Of a DNA stretch of 64,000 nt, positions 22,693-45,807 are shown piece by piece; the stretch's first letter is position 1, and the number at the start of each line of letters is the position of its first letter. The position numbers and the translations under genes are program-made. A model generated the notes under the pieces. The model was not told the DNA's origin. It did not search any database and saw only the letters and a list, made by a program, of their open reading frames with translations. Origin of the DNA: a virus; IMG/VR virus record IMGVR_UViG_3300030103_004816. One strand, 5' to 3'.

Positions 22693-23328
22693 TTAAATAC
22701 AAGGCATTCTATAGCCATCTACGTGGAAATTATTATTAATACATTCAGATGTATTATTATACAGGTACCAGTTTCTTAAGACAACAACTGTAAGAACTGT
22801 ATTCATAATTGTCATTTGTCCAGCTTCAGAATTCTGAGCTGTAAGTGGAACAAAGAAACCTTTATGTGCTATAAACTCTATTGGACTTGGTTCTTCTGGT
22901 AAAAAAGGATTGCTTTCTTTTATATTAGGATTATTTTTTATAAAGTAATATGAACCAGCCATATCAAGAAAGTTTATAATATAAAAATATCTTAACTGTT
23001 CATCAGTCGGATCATTTTTTATTTGTAAAAATCGTAACCTGTTCTTCCTTTCCTTTGACTTTGATACTATCGACCTCAGTAAATTCTCCTGTTGTACAGC
23101 TTTCACGAGTGAAGGATGATAACAACAAGTCCACCCCATCGTAATTTCTTGTTTGACCTTCGAGTCTAGCCGCGAGATTGACGGCATCTCCGATGACGGA
23201 ATAGTCAAATCGTACTTCAGATCCCATGTTCCCGACGATGCACTCACCTGTATTGACACCAATGCCAACATTGATAGGAGGTAAGTTGAGAGGTTTAAGT
23301 TCATTGTTAAGTTTTTTAGTAGCTTCAA
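22693..23328 (-). CDS. Hypothetical protein overlapping the cyclase 3' end (start uncertain)
   Basis: Fills 22693-23011 in the operon direction; an in-frame start covering the whole segment exists only inside the cyclase gene. Confidence 0.5.
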   Translation of the reverse strand: MKLLKNLTMNLNLSTYLLSMLALVSIQVSASSGTWDLKYDLTIPSSEMPSISRLDSKVKQEITMGWTCCYHPSLVKAVQQENLLRSIVSKSKERKNRLRFLQIKNDPTDEQLRYFYIINFLDMAGSYYFIKNNPNIKESNPFLPEEPSPIEFIAHKGFFVPLTAQNSEAGQMTIMNTVLTVVVLRNWYLYNNTSECINNNFHVDGYRMPCI

Positions 23329-24832
23329 TTATTTCAACTGAGGTTTTTATTGCCATATCGGCATGATTATTACACGGTAGAGGCGCGTTCCAGAAGGCCA
23401 TAATACAATCACCCATGTACTTGTCTACCGTTCCACCATTATTTAGGATAATCTTTGTCTGAAGATCTAAGAACTTGTTAACTAATTCAACTAAACCTTC
23501 TGGATCATTTTTATTTTTATAATGCTCACTTATAGGAGTAAAACCACATATATCCATAAACATAAAACTCATTTCTTTTCTTTCTCCTCCTAACTTTAGT
23601 AATGATGGATCATCCTGTAATTGTTTTACTAAATCAGGGGATACGTAAGTGCCAAATTGTCTTTTTATTTGCTGCTTCTGTTTATAAGTATTATAGAATT
23701 GAATAAATGCTCCATGGCTAAATACTAGTACAGAAGATATAATTATCCAAGTAGGATCAAATAAGAGATATTTTGAATAAAAGAATGAGGAAGAAGCTAA
23801 ACCAGCAGCGCCAACGAAAAAGAGGCTGGCAATCCCAGATATCCAAACGGCAGCTCGACTTAATAGAACGAGACAAAGAAGACCAAGAAGTGCTTGAACG
23901 ATTAGCTCAACGAAAGAAAAATAATTGGGACGCTTAATTACTGTTCCGTCTATTATAGTCTTTACTAAGTTAGCCTGAATATCATGTGGATACATTGCTC
24001 CAACTGGTGTGGGTATAATATTGGTTCCTTCAAAAGTAGCACCTATTATTAAGATACTGCCTTGAGGTATATTCTCTCCCCTTATATCCCCTATGCTAAT
24101 GCGTTTAAATTTATTCCAATATGTGTTATATACAGTACCATCATCTAACGTGGAGATCTTAGCATACGCAGGGATACGCACCCATTCAATACCAACATCA
24201 TTAGTTTTTATCTGATATGAAATATCGCCAACGGCAACCCTTAGAATTTCTAAAGCAAATGATGGATAAACCTTTTTGTTTGCTGAAACAACAATAGGTA
24301 CTTTTCTAACTGTACCATCTATATCTGGAATAGCCCCTATAGAGCCATACCCGCTTGCCGATTTTGATAATATTTCTTGAGGTAGAAGTATACCTGGAAA
24401 GTCAAGAGTATAATCTTGAGCTGGTATTCTACCAAGCGTAGCTGTTCCTACATGTAATTCTCTTTCTGTCTGAATTTGGTTGGTAGGTGCTGTTGCTAAT
24501 ATAGAGGGATAATATTGGAGTGTTTCTGCTAATGACCAATCACCGTTGAATCTATCTTTTTCTGAAAGAATAATAGAAAGAGCAAGAAGGTTGTCAGGGG
24601 GGATATTATTTAACTCAAAAGCTAGTTCTTTTCTAGGCCAAGGCCATTGACCGAACTGCTGTAATGATTTTTCATCTATATCAACTAATATTATTTGATC
24701 TGAAGTAACTACTTCATGATTACGCTGAAGCATATCAAAATAATTTAATCTTGTTGCTTCTAATAAAAACGGATCAGCTACTCTCAAAGAAAGTAGTGCT
24801 AATAGAGTTATTCCGGCATGCCAGAGTTTCAA
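23012..24832 (-). CDS. Membrane-bound class III adenylate cyclase with CHASE2 sensor domain
   Basis: CHASE2 motifs DIDEKSLQQFGQWPWPR and DIDGTVR; TM helices; cyclase motifs F.DICGFT, DKYMGDCIMAFW, GNMGS..FDYSVIGDAVNLAARLE. Confidence 0.95.
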   Translation of the reverse strand: MKLWHAGITLLALLSLRVADPFLLEATRLNYFDMLQRNHEVVTSDQIILVDIDEKSLQQFGQWPWPRKELAFELNNIPPDNLLALSIILSEKDRFNGDWSLAETLQYYPSILATAPTNQIQTERELHVGTATLGRIPAQDYTLDFPGILLPQEILSKSASGYGSIGAIPDIDGTVRKVPIVVSANKKVYPSFALEILRVAVGDISYQIKTNDVGIEWVRIPAYAKISTLDDGTVYNTYWNKFKRISIGDIRGENIPQGSILIIGATFEGTNIIPTPVGAMYPHDIQANLVKTIIDGTVIKRPNYFSFVELIVQALLGLLCLVLLSRAAVWISGIASLFFVGAAGLASSSFFYSKYLLFDPTWIIISSVLVFSHGAFIQFYNTYKQKQQIKRQFGTYVSPDLVKQLQDDPSLLKLGGERKEMSFMFMDICGFTPISEHYKNKNDPEGLVELVNKFLDLQTKIILNNGGTVDKYMGDCIMAFWNAPLPCNNHADMAIKTSVEIIEATKKLNNELKPLNLPPINVGIGVNTGECIVGNMGSEVRFDYSVIGDAVNLAARLEGQTRNYDGVDLLLSSFTRESCTTGEFTEVDSIKVKGKEEQVTIFTNKK

Positions 24833-25573
24833 TTAATTACCTTGTTGAATTGATAGTGTGCAACCACCAACTGTCATACAGTTTTGTGATAGTGAATAAG
24901 AATAAGTAGTAGTACCTAGTTGTTTAAATATTAAATCAGTTCCATATAACCCGTCAAGTGTAATGTTTGCTGTATGAGTTGCATTTGCCCCTTTTTGTCT
25001 TGCAGTAACAGAGTTATCATCATTATATATTGTTAGATTCATTGACTTAACACCACTTGATTGTTGTCTACCAGCAATTTCATTCCAGTCACCTGCTAGA
25101 TGAAAATTAAAATCGTGTCCATCTGATGCACCACTTTGATTAGTTTGGTGCCATTGTAGTGAATTATTATTACCGTATAAATCTATTTCCATATAATGAC
25201 CACCGCCTTCAGCACCATCGTAAGTGTATGAACCATCACTCTGCCATGCAACACCTTGTCCTAATTTAAAAGAATTAGATGAGCCTGATACTTCATCAAA
25301 TAAAATTTTATTTACATTACCAGCAAAGTTATATTGAACTATATGTATATCTAAGTTCGGAGCATTATTAATATATGATGAGGAATCTAACATTCCTATT
25401 TGATTATTATAACCTACTTGTTCAATTTCAAGGGAAAGGTTATTACCTGATTGCTCTAAAGAAATAATATTATCATCAGCAAAAGAGTTAGCGGCCCAGG
25501 CTACACCAAATAAGAAAAATAAAGCACCAATTAATGCATTAGCAACTCTATTATTAAATTTACTTTCCTTCAT
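24833..25573 (-). CDS. Curlin-repeat secreted protein (CsgA/CsgB-like)
   Basis: Signal peptide; repeated Q.G.NN...I.Q motifs. Confidence 0.75.
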   Translation of the reverse strand: MKESKFNNRVANALIGALFFLFGVAWAANSFADDNIISLEQSGNNLSLEIEQVGYNNQIGMLDSSSYINNAPNLDIHIVQYNFAGNVNKILFDEVSGSSNSFKLGQGVAWQSDGSYTYDGAEGGGHYMEIDLYGNNNSLQWHQTNQSGASDGHDFNFHLAGDWNEIAGRQQSSGVKSMNLTIYNDDNSVTARQKGANATHTANITLDGLYGTDLIFKQLGTTTYSYSLSQNCMTVGGCTLSIQQGN

Positions 25574-25722
25574 CCTTGACCTCTATATTTTTTCCAGGAT
25601 CTCTTTTTATTTTTATTCATTGTAGCTTTAGCTACATTACCTCTGCCTTGCGAAGTTTTTTTACCTCTTATTCCAGCAGTAGGTATATGATTTTTTTGAA
25701 ATGAGTTAGATCTTGTTGCCAT
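25570..25722 (-). CDS. Small basic hypothetical protein
   Basis: Manual translation MATRSNSFQK..KKTSQGRG..KRSWKKYRGQG. Confidence 0.6.
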   Translation of the reverse strand: MATRSNSFQKNHIPTAGIRGKKTSQGRGNVAKATMNKNKKRSWKKYRGQG

Positions 25723-25923
25723 CTATTCCCACACTAACTTAATACCCCTACGGGTTAATTCATTTCTACACTTTTGTTTTATTTTTGGTTTCTGACCATT
25801 ATTTATATAGTCTATAAGTTCTTTCTTAGGTGTATTTTTAATATAAAAATGCTCAATAGGGGCAGTCTTAGGATTGCCTCCTCTTACAAATTTTTTAGCT
25901 GATGGTTTAAATTTTATTGGCAT
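25723..25923 (-). CDS. Small basic hypothetical protein
   Basis: AGGAGA RBS and a CTAAATA late-like promoter upstream. Confidence 0.65.
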   Translation of the reverse strand: MPIKFKPSAKKFVRGGNPKTAPIEHFYIKNTPKKELIDYINNGQKPKIKQKCRNELTRRGIKLVWE

Positions 25924-25972
25924 ATATTCTCCTATTTAGCACTATTATATACTCTTTTTATATATATTTCAA

Positions 25973-27130
25973 CTAGTTACCTTGTTTAATAACTATAATT
26001 ATATCGTCACCACCATTTCCTTGAATAGTTCCTTGATATCCATCAACTTCAGTAGATAGACTAAAGCTAGCTCCTGCTCCAAAGGTAATACTTATTACTC
26101 CATTTACATCCCTATAAACTACTAACTTACCATCTTCTTCAAAAATATTATATTGACTATCTTTATTTAATCCAAACTGAGCATCTTTTAGTACCCAGCC
26201 ACTTAGACCACCAGTTCCTGCTTGAGCGTCGCCTAACTCTTCTGTTGTTCTTAATAACTCTTCTACAGCATCTAATAAATCAGGTAAAAAGTCACCTGCT
26301 AAGTAATCAATATCTATCCTACCATTTCTTGCGTCATATTCTGGATCATTAGCATAATCATCATAGTCTTTATCTAGTTCATCATATTCCAAAAAGTCAA
26401 CATCAAGTATACCTTGATCTTGATTCATATCAGCTCTAGCCTCTTCTTCAATTTGTTCTTTTACTTCAGGAGGAGGATTAACAATAAACATATTATCAAT
26501 CATACTAGGAGTTATATTATTAAGAGTTAAAGATTGACTTGGAGGAGTATCTAAAGTAGTAACCATTGTAGCTTGATAAGCTTCATTTAAAGTTATAGTA
26601 CCACCTAAGTTAGTTACAGTTATCTCACCTGATGCATCTCCATTTTCATCAGGTAATAATATAATTAAAGATCTCCCTATTTCGTCAACTGTAGTAGTAA
26701 AATCTGTTCCTCTTATACCAATTGTTGCAGTAGGAGTTTTTATATCTATATTTTTTTTATTCATTATAGCAAGTTTACCAGAAGCAAATCTTGCTGTACC
26801 TTGAACGAATTGCATTGTCATTTTTGACTTACTAGGATCTGGATCGTAAATGACTTCGTCGATTAATATTTTAGTATGTTCTGTAAGAGCCAGTTCTGCT
26901 TTATCTATAAATTCTATAAGCATTCTACCGTTTGCTGTTTCAGCGGTATCATATAACTCTATTTCTGGAAGAAAATCTTTTGAAAGGATTAGTGGATTGT
27001 CATCTCTGACTATTTGACCGGCACCGGTCTGCTCTATTATATCACCGATGGGGTCAGCAAAGACCCCATTGATGAGTAACAAATTAAGAATCGTTAGACG
27101 AATCTTTTTGGTTAATTTGTATTGTTGCAT
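25973..27130 (-). CDS. FecR-domain exported protein
   Basis: Signal peptide; D..ET..G...I.F.D..L.EHT...ID..Y; TPTATIGIRGTDF. Confidence 0.88.
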   Translation of the reverse strand: MQQYKLTKKIRLTILNLLLINGVFADPIGDIIEQTGAGQIVRDDNPLILSKDFLPEIELYDTAETANGRMLIEFIDKAELALTEHTKILIDEVIYDPDPSKSKMTMQFVQGTARFASGKLAIMNKKNIDIKTPTATIGIRGTDFTTTVDEIGRSLIILLPDENGDASGEITVTNLGGTITLNEAYQATMVTTLDTPPSQSLTLNNITPSMIDNMFIVNPPPEVKEQIEEEARADMNQDQGILDVDFLEYDELDKDYDDYANDPEYDARNGRIDIDYLAGDFLPDLLDAVEELLRTTEELGDAQAGTGGLSGWVLKDAQFGLNKDSQYNIFEEDGKLVVYRDVNGVISITFGAGASFSLSTEVDGYQGTIQGNGGDDIIIVIKQGN

Positions 27131-27818
27131 TATCAGATGTAATATCTAAATCTATGGATGCGTTTGGAGTAGCACAATCTGTACCTGCTCCTGATGCACA
27201 TGTTCCAGAGATTTGATTAATATCTATATCAGCTGAATCACCTGTAAGCTCAATAATTAGTTCTTGCGAACCATCATTTTGCAAAGTGTTTATGTTATTA
27301 CTGTCACCAGTAATATCAAGATTCCAAGTGATATCATCAGCTTCCCAATCGATATCAAATATATTAGAACTTCCCAACAATATTAGATCAGCGTCTAATC
27401 TTTCGGCGCTTGCTGCATAACCTTGATCTAAGTTAAACTCATTACTGTCTCCAGTAACGTCAAAATTGATATCAGATGAATCGGCACTACCGATATATCC
27501 AATATCCCAATCTATTTCATTTGAATCGCCTGTAAAGTCAAGCTTGTATACTGAACTATCAGCTTTTACAACTCCAAATAAAATATTCTGGTTTCCTAAA
27601 AAGTCTAAATCGAATTCTAGACTAGAACCAGTTATAACTAAGTCAGAACTTGAACTAGAAAAATCAGTACCACCTATTTTGTTACCAAAACCAATTTGGT
27701 CTATGTATAACTTTAAGGTGTCACCTGATTGTTCGATTAAGATCTCGTTATCATCAGTGGCTTGCGCGAAAATAAAAGAAGTCGACAATAGCAATGCTAT
27801 ACTTAAAAGTTTATTCAT
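27084..27818 (-). CDS. Curlin-like repeat secreted protein
   Basis: Signal peptide; (D/N)xxGDSN repeats; highly acidic. Confidence 0.7.
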   Translation of the reverse strand: MNKLLSIALLLSTSFIFAQATDDNEILIEQSGDTLKLYIDQIGFGNKIGGTDFSSSSSDLVITGSSLEFDLDFLGNQNILFGVVKADSSVYKLDFTGDSNEIDWDIGYIGSADSSDINFDVTGDSNEFNLDQGYAASAERLDADLILLGSSNIFDIDWEADDITWNLDITGDSNNINTLQNDGSQELIIELTGDSADIDINQISGTCASGAGTDCATPNASIDLDITSDNATIQINQKDSSNDS

Positions 27819-28788
27819 TTTCGTTTACCTTTTCCTTAAGAGGATGTAGTTCATTTTTACCATCATGTTGATGAGGGTGTCTATGCCCTTCCTCTATAAT
27901 CCAGAAGCCTCTATCGTGCCCCTGGTAAATTAATTCCAGTACTCCAGCTTCAATAGCTGTCCGTACCGCGTATGTCACAGACTCATTATTACCCACACCA
28001 TCTTCAAACTCGACTAATTGAGTTCCCTGCTCTACAAAGCGGAAGACGTCTCCTCCTGAGCCATAACTCAGTACTGTCTTTCTTGTTTGAACATTTAATA
28101 ATATTTCACCTGTGAGAACTGAAACGGCCCTCATAGAAATTGTAACGACATCTTGTCGATATCGTTTACTGTAACCTATACCTAGAGTTCTAGCTCCTAT
28201 CCCTCCAGATTTGATATTAGTATCATAACCTATTATACCACCTTCTACTATTATTCCAGCAAATAAAAGTGGCTGTATACCTTTATCGTCTTGTCCTGTT
28301 TTATTAGCCATATCAGTTCTTGCTGATCGGATAATCTGTCTCTCTCTTACTAGATGGTCAATTCCATTTCTTTCTACTACTCTAAACCATGTACCATCTC
28401 CAGCTGTTTTAAGAGCATCGATAACCATCTCTACTCCACCTTGAGTAACAGCTGTTGAAAAGTCTGCTATTCCTTCTCTTGCTTTTCTTTGACCAGTCTT
28501 ATCTGTAAACTTATATACTGTAACTATAGGCATCTCTTGAGCTGGAGGTAATTGTAATAACTCTAAGTAAGAAGGTAGTTTTACAACTTCAGGATTTTCA
28601 ATACATATATATTTTCTAGTAACTGATTTAGCAATTCCAGTTACAACATCTTTTTTCCAGCCCTCTTCATACTTACCTGTTTCATACGCACATTGACCTG
28701 GTCCTTCTGACCATTGCGGTACTGATGCGCAGCTTGTAAGTAGAAGTGCTGCTAAAAAATATTTAACCATTATCTGGATCTTGCCCAA
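27811..28788 (-). CDS. csgG: Curli secretion channel lipoprotein CsgG
   Basis: Lipobox LTSC; VYKF.DKTGQRK..FSTAVTQG..WFRVVER.G...L..ERQIIR..EGGIIGYD. Confidence 0.95.
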   Translation of the reverse strand: MGKIQIMVKYFLAALLLTSCASVPQWSEGPGQCAYETGKYEEGWKKDVVTGIAKSVTRKYICIENPEVVKLPSYLELLQLPPAQEMPIVTVYKFTDKTGQRKAREGIADFSTAVTQGGVEMVIDALKTAGDGTWFRVVERNGIDHLVRERQIIRSARTDMANKTGQDDKGIQPLLFAGIIVEGGIIGYDTNIKSGGIGARTLGIGYSKRYRQDVVTISMRAVSVLTGEILLNVQTRKTVLSYGSGGDVFRFVEQGTQLVEFEDGVGNNESVTYAVRTAIEAGVLELIYQGHDRGFWIIEEGHRHPHQHDGKNELHPLKEKVNENE

Positions 28789-29245
28789 AGTTTCCTGTAC
28801 CTACTGGTATCTCAATTACTGTTTCTGTTCCGTCTTCTGATACAACAGTTAATCTTATAAATTCTGCTCCTGATTCATCCGTTATTACTTCCCAAGTAAT
28901 AATATTACCTTCTAACGCAAAAGATCCAAACCCAGCAGGGTTATCATTTGCGAACATTGATTCAACTAATTGTTTTGCGAATTGAGCATATATTCTGCTC
29001 TCTAAGTTACGAATGAACTTAGCTAATGTAGAATTTTCAGCTTCTCTTTCAGCTGCTTTTCTTGCTGATTCTAAAGCTTCTTCTATTGCTTTCTTTCTTG
29101 AGTGTTCTTGATTCTCAATAGTTAAGTAGTGAGCTCCTTGGCCTATACCACTAAATGATGGGTTTTTAAACTCATGAACTATTTCCTGAGCATATATAGA
29201 TGACGCTACGAATATTAAGCTACTTATTATTACCTTTTTGTACAT
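28763..29245 (-). CDS. csgF: Curli assembly protein CsgF
   Basis: Signal peptide followed by F.NPSF.G; C-terminal T.IEIP. Confidence 0.88.
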   Translation of the reverse strand: MYKKVIISSLIFVASSIYAQEIVHEFKNPSFSGIGQGAHYLTIENQEHSRKKAIEEALESARKAAEREAENSTLAKFIRNLESRIYAQFAKQLVESMFANDNPAGFGSFALEGNIITWEVITDESGAEFIRLTVVSEDGTETVIEIPVGTGNFGQDPDNG

Positions 29246-43281: not shown

Positions 43282-43926
43282 AAAAAAAAGCAGACCTTGC
43301 GATCTGCTCTTCCCATCATTTCACTAATAAGGAGGTAATATGATGTTTAAACTAAGTGGCAGGATACTTTTCACCCCTGCCATATTTCACTCTTAAGCTA
43401 TTAAGAGTCGGGATCGGGGTCCGCGCGAAGGTAGGGGTAGTCCAGTTATCGTACGTTCTGGGGTCACCTACTAAGCTACGCTTATATTTTGCCCTCCCGT
43501 TTTAAGGATTCTGAAAGGAACGCTAATTCGGATTCAGATCTTAAAAAACTCAAGGTGGGGCCAACAACCTGACTCAATTGGAATGTAATTGTACGGCCAG
43601 CACGATTGACTTTTTATATCGCGGCTGCATAAGGTGTATCATTAAGATCGCCTCTGCCTGACTCTACCGCTGCTTCCCATACATTTAAGTCGGTTTGACA
43701 CGGTTCAGTGTTCCAATTACAATCCTCACAGATTGCTGCTTAGCTGGATGAAATCTCTACGTTCACAAATTGGTTGATTAAGCCAATCCATTTACTACGA
43801 GGTCCCAGTCGTGGAGATCACCTTTAAGCACTTCCACCGCTATCTTAATTCAATCAAGGTATTTCAACTTTGATCTAGCTAAGTAAGCTCTTCAGCGCGC
43901 GACGTTCATATAGCCCCTGCTAAGTT
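43282..43926 (-). ncRNA. Large (~645 nt) structured non-coding RNA, family unassigned
   Basis: TTGCCA-18-TATAAT promoter (43962-43933); terminator GCAGATC-GCAA-GGTCTGC-T8 (43307-43282); no ORF >=60 aa; raised GC; many local and long-range helices. Confidence 0.75.
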
Positions 43927-44020
43927 AAAACTATTATACGCGCTTTTTAATACAAATGGCAACTACTTTAATGCCCCACAGTCCCTTTTTATTCGGAATA
44001 AGACTAATTCTTATTTAGAA

Positions 44021-44436
44021 AAAAAGTTGCACTTTCCTCAAAAATAATATAATATTGCAGCTTTTTATATAAAATTGAAATAATATTAGAATAAAGTTAT
44101 AATAGAAATATAATTAAAAAGGAGTAAATTATGTTATATTTAAAAATCATTTCAAATCTTATTATCTTATCTATTCTAGATCTTCACACTCATTTCATTA
44201 AACAACAAACTATTCTATTATCTAATTATACAAATCACCCTCTTCTATTTTCTAATAACAATATAGAAGAAGATTACATAATAGGGTTTCAAATTTACTT
44301 AAACATATTATCTAAATTTAAACTATTATAATATTTTAAAAAAAGTTAAAAAAGTAGTTGCATTTTATTTTAAAATATTATAATATTGCAACTTTTTATA
44401 TAAATTTGAAATAATATTAGAATAAAGTTATAATAT
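44021..44436 (+). repeat. Imperfect ~85-bp direct repeat (44021-44105 and ~44352-44436), each copy carrying two tandem promoters
   Basis: AGTTGCA..TAATATTGCA.CTTTTTATATAAA.TTGAAATAATATTAGAATAAAGTTATAATA present twice. Confidence 0.85.
44131..44331 (+). CDS. Hypothetical 66-aa protein, G-depleted coding strand
   Basis: TTGAAA-17-TATAAT promoter, AAGGAG RBS; 8 G in 201 nt. Confidence 0.6.
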   Translation: MLYLKIISNLIILSILDLHTHFIKQQTILLSNYTNHPLLFSNNNIEEDYIIGFQIYLNILSKFKLL

Positions 44437-44457
44437 GGTTTTAATAAGGAGAAAGAT

Positions 44458-44682
44458 ATGAAAATTGTAATTAGTGTTAGTAATGAAAAAGATATGTTAG
44501 GTAGTGTTGAAGAAAATAGTTTGAGAGAAATTGTTTTAAGTGATGATGTTATTAATGAATTTAAAATGAAATTTGAATGTGTTGGTTTTGAAAATAGTTT
44601 AGAAGAATTTATTAGTAATGATATTAAAGATTTATTAAGAATGGAAATTGAGGATGGTAAGTATAATTTATTTAATTATTGA
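44458..44682 (+). CDS. Acidic 74-aa protein, cytosine-free gene
   Basis: TTGAAA-17-TATAAT promoter, TAAGGAG RBS; no C; no P/A/T/Q/H residues. Confidence 0.75.
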   Translation: MKIVISVSNEKDMLGSVEENSLREIVLSDDVINEFKMKFECVGFENSLEEFISNDIKDLLRMEIEDGKYNLFNY

Positions 44683-44734
44683 AATAATAATAAAATAGAG
44701 TTATAATGTTTATATAATTTAAAAGGAGAAAATT

Positions 44735-45079
44735 ATGATAGTATTTGATAAAAGTGGATTTGTAAATTATGTTAGAAATAATGATGAGTTGTATATTGAT
44801 AATGTAAGTGTTGGTGGTGAAAATGATAATTTTGATAATGATATGGAAATTGTTAATAGTAGTTGGGATGGAAATGGAGTGTATTGTATTAAGTATGGTA
44901 GTAGGGGTGAAGTTGATTTTGAAAGAGTTAATTTTAGTGATGAATTAAATGAGTGGGATGAAAATTTAGATAGGGGAGATGAATTTAGATTAATGAGAAA
45001 TGATATTGGTAATAGTTATGTTGATTTAAGTTTTGGTGAAGAAGATATTAGATGTTATTTTATAATTGTGGAGGGGTGA
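44735..45079 (+). CDS. Acidic 114-aa protein, cytosine-free gene
   Basis: TTGAAA-17-TATAAT promoter, AAGGAG RBS; no C; no P/A/T/Q/H residues. Confidence 0.78.
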   Translation: MIVFDKSGFVNYVRNNDELYIDNVSVGGENDNFDNDMEIVNSSWDGNGVYCIKYGSRGEVDFERVNFSDELNEWDENLDRGDEFRLMRNDIGNSYVDLSFGEEDIRCYFIIVEG

Positions 45080-45080
45080 T

Positions 45081-45230
45081 ATGTTTGATTATGTTTTATT
45101 AAGATATAAATTAGGTGAATGTATAGATGTATTGTTTGATGATGATTGTAATATAGATGAAGATAAAAAAGATGAATTAAATAATGAAATACAAAATATT
45201 ATTGATAAATTGGGAGGGGAAATATATTAA
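45081..45230 (+). CDS. Acidic 49-aa protein with a single C
   Basis: GGAGG RBS; MFDYVLLRYKLGECIDVLFDDDCNIDEDKKDELNNEIQNIIDKLGGEIY. Confidence 0.65.
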   Translation: MFDYVLLRYKLGECIDVLFDDDCNIDEDKKDELNNEIQNIIDKLGGEIY

Positions 45231-45561
45231 TATATTTCTTGCACTTTACTTAAAAATAATATAATATTGGGGGAATTTTGTGGTGGGAAAAATAAATGAA
45301 AAAGTAGTTGATTTTTTTGTTGTTTGAATATAATATTGCGAAGTTAAGAATGATTCTTATTTAGATAATTTTATTATATTTTTTTTGAATTTTATTTGAA
45401 TTTTATTCTCCCCCCCAATTTGGTTGAGCGCTCGCTGTCTCCCGGGTGACTGGAAACTTTCGACTCCTGGGAACCGGAGAGTTTCTCTCTGAGGTTCGCT
45501 GACTAAACCCCCGCGGGTTGCAATATTATACTATTTTCGACAAAAGTGCAACTTGAGACAC

Positions 45562-45770
45562 AAAAAAAAGTCTCCTAGAAACGGGAGACTATTGCCCCGT
45601 GAGCATGCAGTGAGAGAGTCTCCTAGCTCATATCATAGGACCAAACCTAATTCGAGAGCGCCAGATGCTCGGGCAATAGTCTCCTCAGAAGTCTCCGCAG
45701 AGTCTCCTAGAAAGTCTCCCGAAAGTACTCTGAGCAGTTTAGCTAGGAGACTTTATAGGAGACTCTCCTA
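45562..45770 (-). ncRNA. ~210-nt small RNA with GGAGAC/GTCTCC repeats
   Basis: TTGCAT-17-TATAAT promoter (45805-45777); terminator AGTCTCC-N8-GGAGACT followed by a T-run; 9 GGAGAC/GTCTCC copies inside. Confidence 0.65.
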
Positions 45771-45807
45771 TACTCTATTATAGCATATTTTCAACCAATA
45801 TGCAACT

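Follow-up and report, generated by a model that had tools for sequence, protein, structure and literature searches.

Cytosine-free early-gene cassettes in marine T4-like phages and their possible link to replacement of guanine in phage DNA

The stretch analysed here, 64,000 nt of the IMG/VR virus record IMGVR_UViG_3300030103_004816 (hereafter the window), carries at 44393–45191 a run of 799 nt whose + strand contains no cytosine (A 315, T 306, G 178, C 0). The run covers two complete small genes and most of a third. The three genes make up an accessory cassette of early genes, located in the hyperplastic region of the phage, a marine T4-like myophage with a genome of ~159 kb. The run had been noticed earlier from the letters alone, and a scan of the whole 64-kb window reproduced it with exact borders, namely the C at 44392 and the C at 45192. 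The next-longest C-free runs in the window, of 89 and 86 nt, both adjoin the cassette, and runs without A or without T reach 34 nt at most. Over the run itself the GC skew is +1; in the 44–45 kb bin it is +0.57, vs. about −0.15 elsewhere in the window. The coding-strand C content per gene is 0, 0, and 0.7% in the cassette, whereas the window median is 14.1% and the next-lowest gene has 7.6%. At a coding-strand C content of ~14.7%, the chance of one such run is ~10^-55, close to the ~10^-56 at 15% C given in the original prediction. Relative to the background, A, T, and G gain 4, 7, and 3.5 points, respectively, so that the lost C is spread over three bases. In sequence made only of A, T, and G, stops take up ~13% of codons and a 114-codon open frame has P ~2×10^-7; hence, the open frames of the cassette are not due to chance.

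The promoters, ribosome-binding sites, and intergenic DNA inside the run proved C-free as well, as had been claimed, and the cause therefore does not lie in codons or tRNAs. The earlier description of the products also holds: the 74- and 114-aa proteins lack Pro, Ala, Thr, Gln, and His, which leaves a 15-residue alphabet, and they use only AGT for Ser, TTR for Leu, and AGR for Arg, while the single C of the 49-aa gene lies in a CAA Gln codon, a Gln that holds the sole C in 13 of the 17 members of this family collected. The cassette proteins are acidic (isoelectric point, pI, 4.0–4.3). An AlphaFold2 model of the 114-aa protein (family fam0) shows an alpha/beta fold with pLDDT 89 and pTM 0.83, for which neither PDB nor BFVD yielded a Foldseek match at E ≤ 0.001, nor VIA-align one with Z ≥ 5; the model of the 74-aa protein (family fam3) is of low confidence. 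The cassette proteins match no Pfam, PHROG, or PADLOC family, and the cassette has no near-nucleotide or protein-level match in cultured phages. Its products are probably counter-defence or takeover proteins.

The run is not an artefact, a doubt that had been raised about it, because four independent assemblies (L090–L093) carry the same 799 nt identically. Each of them differs from the window by 4–9 single-nucleotide polymorphisms, in the flanks only. The run accounts for 24% of the length compared, and all 16 distinct polymorphic positions lie outside it (rough P ~0.01), suggesting a stronger constraint inside the run than in its flanks. The exact 114-aa protein occurs on at least 24 contigs from many samples, and eleven index blocks hold a 50–200 kb contig that carries it.

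Conservation among relatives shows that the C-free state is maintained by selection at the level of the nucleic acid. Twelve related loci (L001–L012) have C-free runs of 537–1,421 nt, and a fam0 homologue was found in 49 further metagenome loci at 38–100% identity, with no C in 40 of them and 1–4 C in the other nine. In the protein collection, fam0 has 33 homologous clusters, the alignment of which is nearly devoid of Pro, Ala, Thr, Gln, and His. The question of whether homologues keep zero C at synonymous sites has a clear answer in four families: all 2,886 two-fold codons ending in a pyrimidine (Y) end in T, and 1,051 fourfold third positions of Val and Gly are T, A, or G, with not a single C. 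All conserved Val and Gly columns vary among T, A, and G, so the synonymous sites have turned over many times without C ever being fixed. With the other window genes as background, the absence of C has log10 P = −12 from synonymous third positions and −26 from the missing amino acids. The C-free open reading frames are under purifying selection, and the prediction of a real, selected, nucleic-acid-level property of early genes is thus borne out by the zero C of the homologues and by the synonymous turnover. At least 10 unrelated small families are written C-free in such cassettes, which hold 2–5 genes on either strand, and in both orientations it is always the coding strand that is C-free. Family fam3 comprises 14 C-free homologues together with C-containing paralogues at downstream positions; C-freeness is a property of place, not of proteins.

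The C-free state is also polar. Its 5′ edge is abrupt and coincides with the first promoter; the last C residues before the run (44361, 44389, and 44392) belong to the −35 element and the start region of the promoter at 44351–44392. On the 3′ side, where the downstream genes keep the direction of the cassette, C returns by degrees: the per-gene values from 5′ to 3′ are 0, 0, 0, 1.2, 8.2, 10.0, and 15.4% in locus L038, 0, 0.5, 4.4, and 13.9% in L052, 0.3, 2.0, 11.1, and 15.5% in L027, and 0, 0, 0, 4.9, and 14.9% in L030. The mean over 38 distinct junctions shows C climbing from 6% to 14% within 400 nt on the downstream side, whereas on the upstream side the first 50 nt already have 12%. Members of fam3, fam8, and fam9 have no C inside cassettes and 2–11% C at downstream positions, where they use Gln, Thr, Pro, Ala, and His in place of other residues of the C-free members. 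The tolerated C lies near the 3′ end of the last gene. The rare C in the C-poor zones shows no context preference, with no deficit of pyrimidine-C (YC) or of ACA: the base before it follows the background composition, CC is even enriched, ACA is among the commonest contexts, and AC and GC are kept out with the same strictness as UC and CC. The pattern thus amounts to a constraint at the level of the nucleic acid, specific to the coding strand and polar, which acts on the genes that come first after strong promoters of early type, and it fits a hazard for the transcribing polymerase at every C of the RNA, i.e., at every G of the template.

The features of the cassette region are collected in Table 1. 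Between 43.2 and 45.6 kb lie seven copies, on both strands, of a ~40-nt promoter termed P1 (..GTAGTTGCAYTTT..TATAATATTGC..) and three copies of a promoter termed P2 together with its leader, with the AT-rich palindrome TAAGAATGATTCTTATTTAGA at both ends of the cassette region. C is absent from the P2 promoters and leaders but present in the start regions of P1. Each cassette open reading frame has an AAGGAG/GGAGG site, which makes three Shine–Dalgarno sites, and the order of the module in relatives is P1, palindrome, P2, ribosome site, and gene. A conserved 9-bp AT-rich palindrome adjoins P1, on which a terminator scan gave no call. The motif of the left palindrome is also found 3′ of P1 promoters in three relatives (L004, L007, and L041), and an IMG/VR search with the palindrome alone led to two more contigs (L066 and L067), in which the motif flanks C-free runs of 853 and 506 nt.

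Table 1. Features in and around the C-free cassette, in window coordinates
Feature	Position	Strand	Basis and remarks
AT-rich palindrome TAAGACTAATTCTTATTTAGA, left stem-loop copy flanking the cassette region	43999..44022	+	repeat family D11
P1-type early promoter copy (GTTGCAC..TATAATATTGCA)	44024..44059	+	repeat families D2/D3, inverted copies I1–I6
P2-type promoter TTGAAA-17-TATAAT upstream of the 66-aa gene	44075..44103	+	11/12 consensus matches; repeat family D1
66-aa G-poor gene, mirror-image neighbour outside the C-free run	44131..44331	+	8 G in 201 nt; 86-nt G-free run 44180–44265
P1-type promoter directly upstream of the C-free run	44351..44392	+	repeats D2, D3, I2, I5
799-nt C-free run; template strand G-free	44393..45191	+	base count; four other assemblies identical
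P2 promoter TTGAAA-17-TATAAT of gene 1, C-free	44406..44434	+	11/12 consensus matches
Gene 1, 74 aa, pI 4.3, 0 C, family fam3	44458..44682	+	
Internal P2 promoter TTGAAA-17-TATAAT	44679..44707	+	11/12 consensus matches
Gene 2, 114 aa, pI 4.05, 0 C, family fam0, invariant GSRGEV motif	44735..45079	+	
Gene 3, 49 aa, single C at 45192 (CAA Gln)	45081..45230	+	
Two more P1-type promoter copies (45239–45269, 45301–45338), no long open reading frame downstream	45239..45338	+	repeats
Palindrome, right copy TAAGAATGATTCTTATTTAGA	45345..45368	+	repeat family D11
Inverted P1-type promoter driving a GC-rich non-coding stretch toward the cassette	45517..45554	−	repeats I4–I6

The gene for a 66-aa protein just upstream of the run has the same double promoter as the cassette genes, and its coding strand is poor in G with a normal content of C. 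The protein is conserved in locus L012, where the G-poor state is kept despite divergence of the protein; the gene is inverted in L004, and the module as a whole in L001–L006. A homologue of the same length at the same position is written C-free in four loci (L033, L038, L047, and L058; BLASTP E 5e-6). With its hydrophobic N-terminus, the protein is a candidate membrane peptide. This is the only gene that is truly G-poor on its own coding strand: long G-free runs on the + strand of relatives were considered as a second phenomenon and rejected, since most of them are C-free genes on the other strand. The mirror composition of the 66-aa gene is left unexplained by every model considered below.

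Several further elements lie around the cassette. The start regions of the two P1 copies at 45239–45338 (+) read ATTGGGGG and ATTGCGAAG, and in L004 a G-run motif, GGTGGGTGGGTGGG, stands just upstream of the equivalent pair; the 89-nt C-free run (45250–45338) falls in this stretch. On the − strand, 43282–43962 holds a GC-rich unit of ~650 nt without an open reading frame, whose own promoter is of P1 type (TTGCCA-18-TATAAT), with an intrinsic terminator at 43314–43283. The unit is conserved in L004 and has no Rfam match even at E ≤ 1, and ARAGORN finds no transfer-messenger RNA (tmRNA) here. A second GC-rich non-coding region at 45400–45805, with repeated GTCTCC/GGAGAC motifs, has its own promoter and terminator (45590–45569) on the − strand and converges on the cassette. 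No tRNA or Rfam family was found in or beside the cassette.

The window encodes T4-type baseplate proteins (gp5, gp6, gp8, and gp25-like), gp32, gp59, RNase H, ribonucleotide reductase, PhoH, curli CsgG/CsgF, a CHASE2-cyclase, a carbamoyltransferase, and many 2-oxoglutarate (2OG)-Fe(II) oxygenases. Contigs of 159.0–159.2 kb carry the same genes, which sets the genome size at ~159 kb. Nearly all neighbouring genes lie on the − strand, so that the cassette (+) is antiparallel to them. The closest cultured relative is Methylophilales phage Melnitz, with 59% identity for a DUF932 protein; in its 141.5 kb there is no C-free run longer than 63 nt, and no que genes are annotated. Melnitz has a tmRNA annotated in its non-structural early-gene region, and it shares with the window a curli-type secretion set (CsgG, CsgF, a curlin-repeat protein, and a FecR-domain protein) plus a CHASE2-adenylate/guanylate cyclase, at 23012–29245 (−) of the window.

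Outside the window, the phage carries a gene cluster for 7-deazaguanine synthesis and insertion, a system which the original prediction, made from the window, did not connect with the cassette. We reached it by exact-protein look-ups from the gp8 gene of the window along one ENA contig, which place it ~52.6–63 kb left of the window start (L088:9468–20447). On a contig of 159,167 nt, cassette and tail genes are spaced as the window predicts, and by the same reckoning the que cluster lies inside this contig. In order, the cluster encodes a flavodoxin, a QueE-like radical S-adenosylmethionine protein, a 2OG-oxygenase/GT29 fusion, a Gpt-like phosphoribosyltransferase, a DUF3307 protein, QueD, FolE, an 80-aa open reading frame, a 264-aa protein, a PurN-like formyltransferase, a P-loop kinase, QueF, a 67-aa open reading frame, QueC, a 208-aa open reading frame, and two dUTPase/DCD-fold proteins. 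QueC scores above the NCBIfam curated cut-off; QueF (E 3e-67) reaches 227 bits, below its 293-bit cut-off, and is 46% identical to the QueF of the phage vB_FspM_immuto_2-6A (immuto); the QueE matches are weak and N-terminal. The 264-aa protein is 57% identical (E 5e-102) to the DpdA of immuto and 39% identical to its counterpart in the Campylobacter phages CP220/CPt10, its other cultured-phage relative being one weak Chryseobacterium phage match at 25%; by these similarities it is placed in the DpdA3 group. It has no match to the Pfam TGT model, which misses DpdA3, and negative TGT searches therefore carry no meaning. The PurN-like formyltransferase is 43% identical (E 3e-41) to the DpdN of immuto, and the gene order of the cluster is the same as in immuto. 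The phosphoribosyltransferase and the kinase are also present in immuto and hence need not mean a pre-replicative route, while the 2OG-oxygenase/GT29 (sialyltransferase-like) fusion hints at a further glycosylated derivative. The DpdA3 family has more than 4,000 protein clusters in metagenomes; none of the 120 DpdA clusters listed matched the 157.5-kb or 134.5-kb cassette contigs by its longest contig.

The DNA of immuto has been reported to contain 345,000 fdPreQ1 per 10^6 nt with no dG peak (Cui et al. 2023, PMC10516641). According to the same study, the genomes of CP220, phiST, and immuto are modified completely by DpdA3, and fully modified DNA of this type resists enzymes with at least one G in their site (PMC10516641). 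Because its predicted DpdA3/DpdN/que set matches that of immuto, the virion DNA of the present phage is probably without ordinary G, with all G-containing sites shielded.

If all dG is replaced, a C-free message means a template strand without modified guanine, and this is, tentatively, what we regard as the likeliest purpose of the C-free cassette. Were fdPreQ1 to take the place of all dG, the modified G of the cassette would lie on the non-template strand only, and the cassette would be the one place in the genome where the transcribed strand is without the modified base. On entry of the fully modified genome, host RNA polymerase could then read the first genes with no modified G in its path, and would also avoid any lesion, adduct, or nick made by a host enzyme at a modified G; with targets on one strand only, no double-strand break would arise inside the cassette. 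Its products would be those needed whatever happens at the other guanines. Each template G would be a polar hazard for everything downstream, which would explain the total exclusion at the 5′ side and the graded relaxation behind it, and replacement of G independent of motif would exclude all contexts of C alike.

The cultured phages offer a comparison, for which whole records were screened for stretches of 150 nt or more that lack C or lack G. A single such run occurs in immuto, in a small-gene array: it is held by gene 128 (MW353175.1 68330–68686; L098:2331–2687), which encodes an acidic protein of 118 aa with 5 C in 357 nt. Gene 128 shares the residues FGSRG with fam0, but hhalign matched the GSRG motif only, at a probability of 18%, and no homology is claimed. 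The QueF-bearing phage Pf16, Melnitz, KVP40, and CP220 have no run of this length. A template strand free of modified G may account at once for the exclusion of C in all contexts, for the presence of the trait in this genome, and for the one C-poor gene of immuto, and with some reserve we rank this reading first, ahead of a message proof against loss of cytidine triphosphate (CTP) or against ddhCTP and ahead of one hidden from Rho.

A number of observations weigh against it. CP220, with 100% dADG, has no stretch of 150 nt or more that lacks C or lacks G, and neither has an IMG/VR genome (G002; 91% complete) with a DpdA3 homologue at 48% identity; full replacement of G therefore does not require a cassette. 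Immuto has just one such C-poor gene. The converse, that a cassette comes with a predicted G-replacement system, holds in the single complete genome in which cassette and DpdA3 were compared (n = 1). The modification of this phage's DNA is itself predicted from its genes. All other genes of the phage, including early-looking units, have template G, as do the GC-rich non-coding RNAs from the same promoter type, so that the hazard must be conditional. The cassette promoters keep a G at −33 of the −35 element. To our knowledge, no host enzyme that attacks 7-deazaguanine DNA has been described. Bulky groups (vinyl, ethynyl, or phenyl) on 7-deazaG nearly abolish in vitro transcription by the RNA polymerases of E. 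coli and B. subtilis, which favours the reading; however, that block was assigned to promoter (−35) recognition and no truncated RNA was seen (PMC4838386), so that elongation through modified G may be unhindered.

The same polarity can be read from the side of the RNA. Cassette messages may be CTP-independent, transcribed when CTP is scarce, as in ultra-small oligotrophic hosts or through phage drain of cytidine nucleotides, or when it is poisoned by the ddhCTP of viperin, and each C would then be a stall or termination point that costs everything downstream. This is the part of the original three-letter-mRNA model that stays a live, if rather doubtful, rival; its variant with ACA-cutting MazF-type interferases finds no support, since the exclusion covers all C and ACA is frequent in the C-poor zone just downstream. 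Exclusion of C regardless of context, the C-free state from the promoter onward with its graded 3′ relaxation, the contrast between C-free P2 promoters and leaders and C-holding P1 start regions, and the toleration of C near the 3′ end of the last gene are all as such a hazard would have them, and prokaryotic viperins reportedly make ddhCTP, a C-specific chain terminator. The effect of ddhCTP on the multisubunit bacterial polymerase is doubtful, however, neither the window nor the que cluster has a gene that points to CTP or viperin, CTP is required for the GC-rich non-coding RNAs made from the same promoters, and the co-occurrence with a full G-replacement system and with the C-poor gene of immuto is left unexplained. 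RNA proof against CTP loss or ddhCTP fits the sequence facts as well as a G-free template does, but it lacks support from gene content, and we give it a minor share of our belief. A message blind to Rho is unlikely. Rho loads on C-rich, G-poor RNA via YC dinucleotides and limits distal early transcription in T4; a C-free sense RNA would not be bound and would escape polarity before ribosome coupling, and, with the same low likelihood, the G-free, C-containing antisense RNA would be an ideal Rho substrate that insulates the cassette from opposing neighbours. The polarity of the pattern, the antiparallel setting of the cassette to the flanking genes, and the resemblance of the neighbouring G-poor, C-containing 66-aa gene to a Rho utilization (rut) site speak for Rho, whereas the exclusion is equally strict for AC, GC, UC, and CC, and the rare C shows no YC deficit. 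Moreover, Rho needs many YC sites, so that strict zero C and five lost amino acids go far beyond what evasion demands.

Two further models of the original prediction conflict with polarity, composition, and synonymous turnover. With G and C on separate strands, the cassette can contain no palindromic site with both, and it was proposed to be restriction-proof DNA that encodes DNA-mimic anti-restriction proteins. The acidic proteins, the lack of G+C palindromes (true by construction), and the swappable gene content, as in anti-defence islands, agree with this; we nevertheless hold it to be very improbable, as the rule is bound to the coding strand and relaxes from 5′ to 3′ where restriction would act symmetrically, the rest of the genome is not so protected, fdPreQ1-type DNA already resists enzymes with at least one G in their site (PMC10516641), and neither Pfam, PHROG, and PADLOC searches nor Foldseek and VIA searches with the fam0 model brought up a relative of Ocr, ArdA, Arn, or any other known family or fold. 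Least credible of all is a mutational origin, in which C was lost by deamination of the displaced strand at a hyper-transcribed R-loop origin that primes replication. A GC skew of +1 over the run and many strong promoters, several of them 'orphan', would suit an R-loop; however, the lost C is shared out among A, T, and G instead of having become T, the amino-acid replacements are not the C-to-T ones, the frames are intact despite the 13% stop density and under purifying selection, and zero C over 38–100% identity with free turnover of T, A, and G needs selection. The remaining weight goes to causes not thought of. As a whole, the original interpretation is upheld in part, with the selected three-letter state confirmed and the link to the phage's own 7-deazaguanine system missing from it.

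In its architecture, the cassette recalls the promoter-early stem-loop (PeSL) cassettes of the T4-type phages RB49/phi1 (Arbiol et al. 2010, PMC2839356). Both have repeated strong sigma70-like promoters (here seven P1 and three P2 within 2.4 kb) and a stem-loop flanking small ORFans in a hyperplastic region, and in both the gene content varies between close relatives and modules are inverted, here with an inverted 66-aa module and at least 10 swappable families on either strand. However, base exclusion is not reported for PeSL, and the palindrome of the present cassette lies downstream of the promoter, is AT-rich, and was not called as a terminator by the scan. The fdPreQ1 system of immuto (Cui et al. 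2023, PMC10516641) has an equivalent cluster in the same order, from which a DpdA3-type transglycosylase, FolE/QueD/QueE/QueC/QueF, and a DpdN formyltransferase are predicted here too (57% identity for DpdA, 43% for the DpdN-like protein, and 46% for QueF), and immuto also has one nearly C-free small acidic gene; that study reports the modification only, with no link to the base composition of genes. Avoidance of motifs, be it of restriction sites or of ACA in MazF-resistant mRNAs (natural or made for single-protein production), likewise removes a target at synonymous and amino-acid level, but the target there is a motif of 3–6 nt, whereas here it is a whole nucleotide over 0.5–1.4 kb, including spacers, at the cost of five amino acids. 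Neither form of avoidance describes the cassette, in which all C, and not ACA in particular, is absent, and in which depletion is always on the coding strand and polar from 5′ to 3′. Synthetic G-less or C-less cassettes for in vitro transcription are similarly transcribable with three nucleoside triphosphates, but they are engineered and non-coding, while the present cassette is natural, protein-coding, and conserved. The rut logic of Rho shares the extreme C/G asymmetry of transcripts with polar consequences, and differs in its YC specificity, which is absent here, where exclusion is total. Our literature search on cytosine-free or C-less phage genes found no relevant paper, in line with the earlier statement that no such phage system was known; whole natural genes with promoters and spacers in three letters, encoding 15-residue proteins, are not described in the searchable literature.

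The cassettes show a hazard at the level of a single nucleotide, acting on the first phage transcripts or on their template, and flag by sequence alone the probable immediate-early counter-defence genes of abundant ocean phages. Going by the structure model, they are moreover natural cases of proteins that fold with no Pro, Ala, Thr, Gln, or His. It may be, and we put it forward with slightly more reserve than the G-free template itself, that phages which replace G throughout place their first-expressed, swappable counter-defence genes on a G-free template, which would be an unrecognised coupling between hypermodification and gene alphabet. If this coupling is true, host polymerase or a host defence acts at the modified G of the incoming genome, and proteins of 15 amino acids are the phage's answer. 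The cassettes thus offer a handle on what 7-deazaguanine hypermodification costs the phage and on what hosts do against it, for which a cultured model exists in immuto with Flavobacterium sp. LMO8, a phage that carries one such gene.

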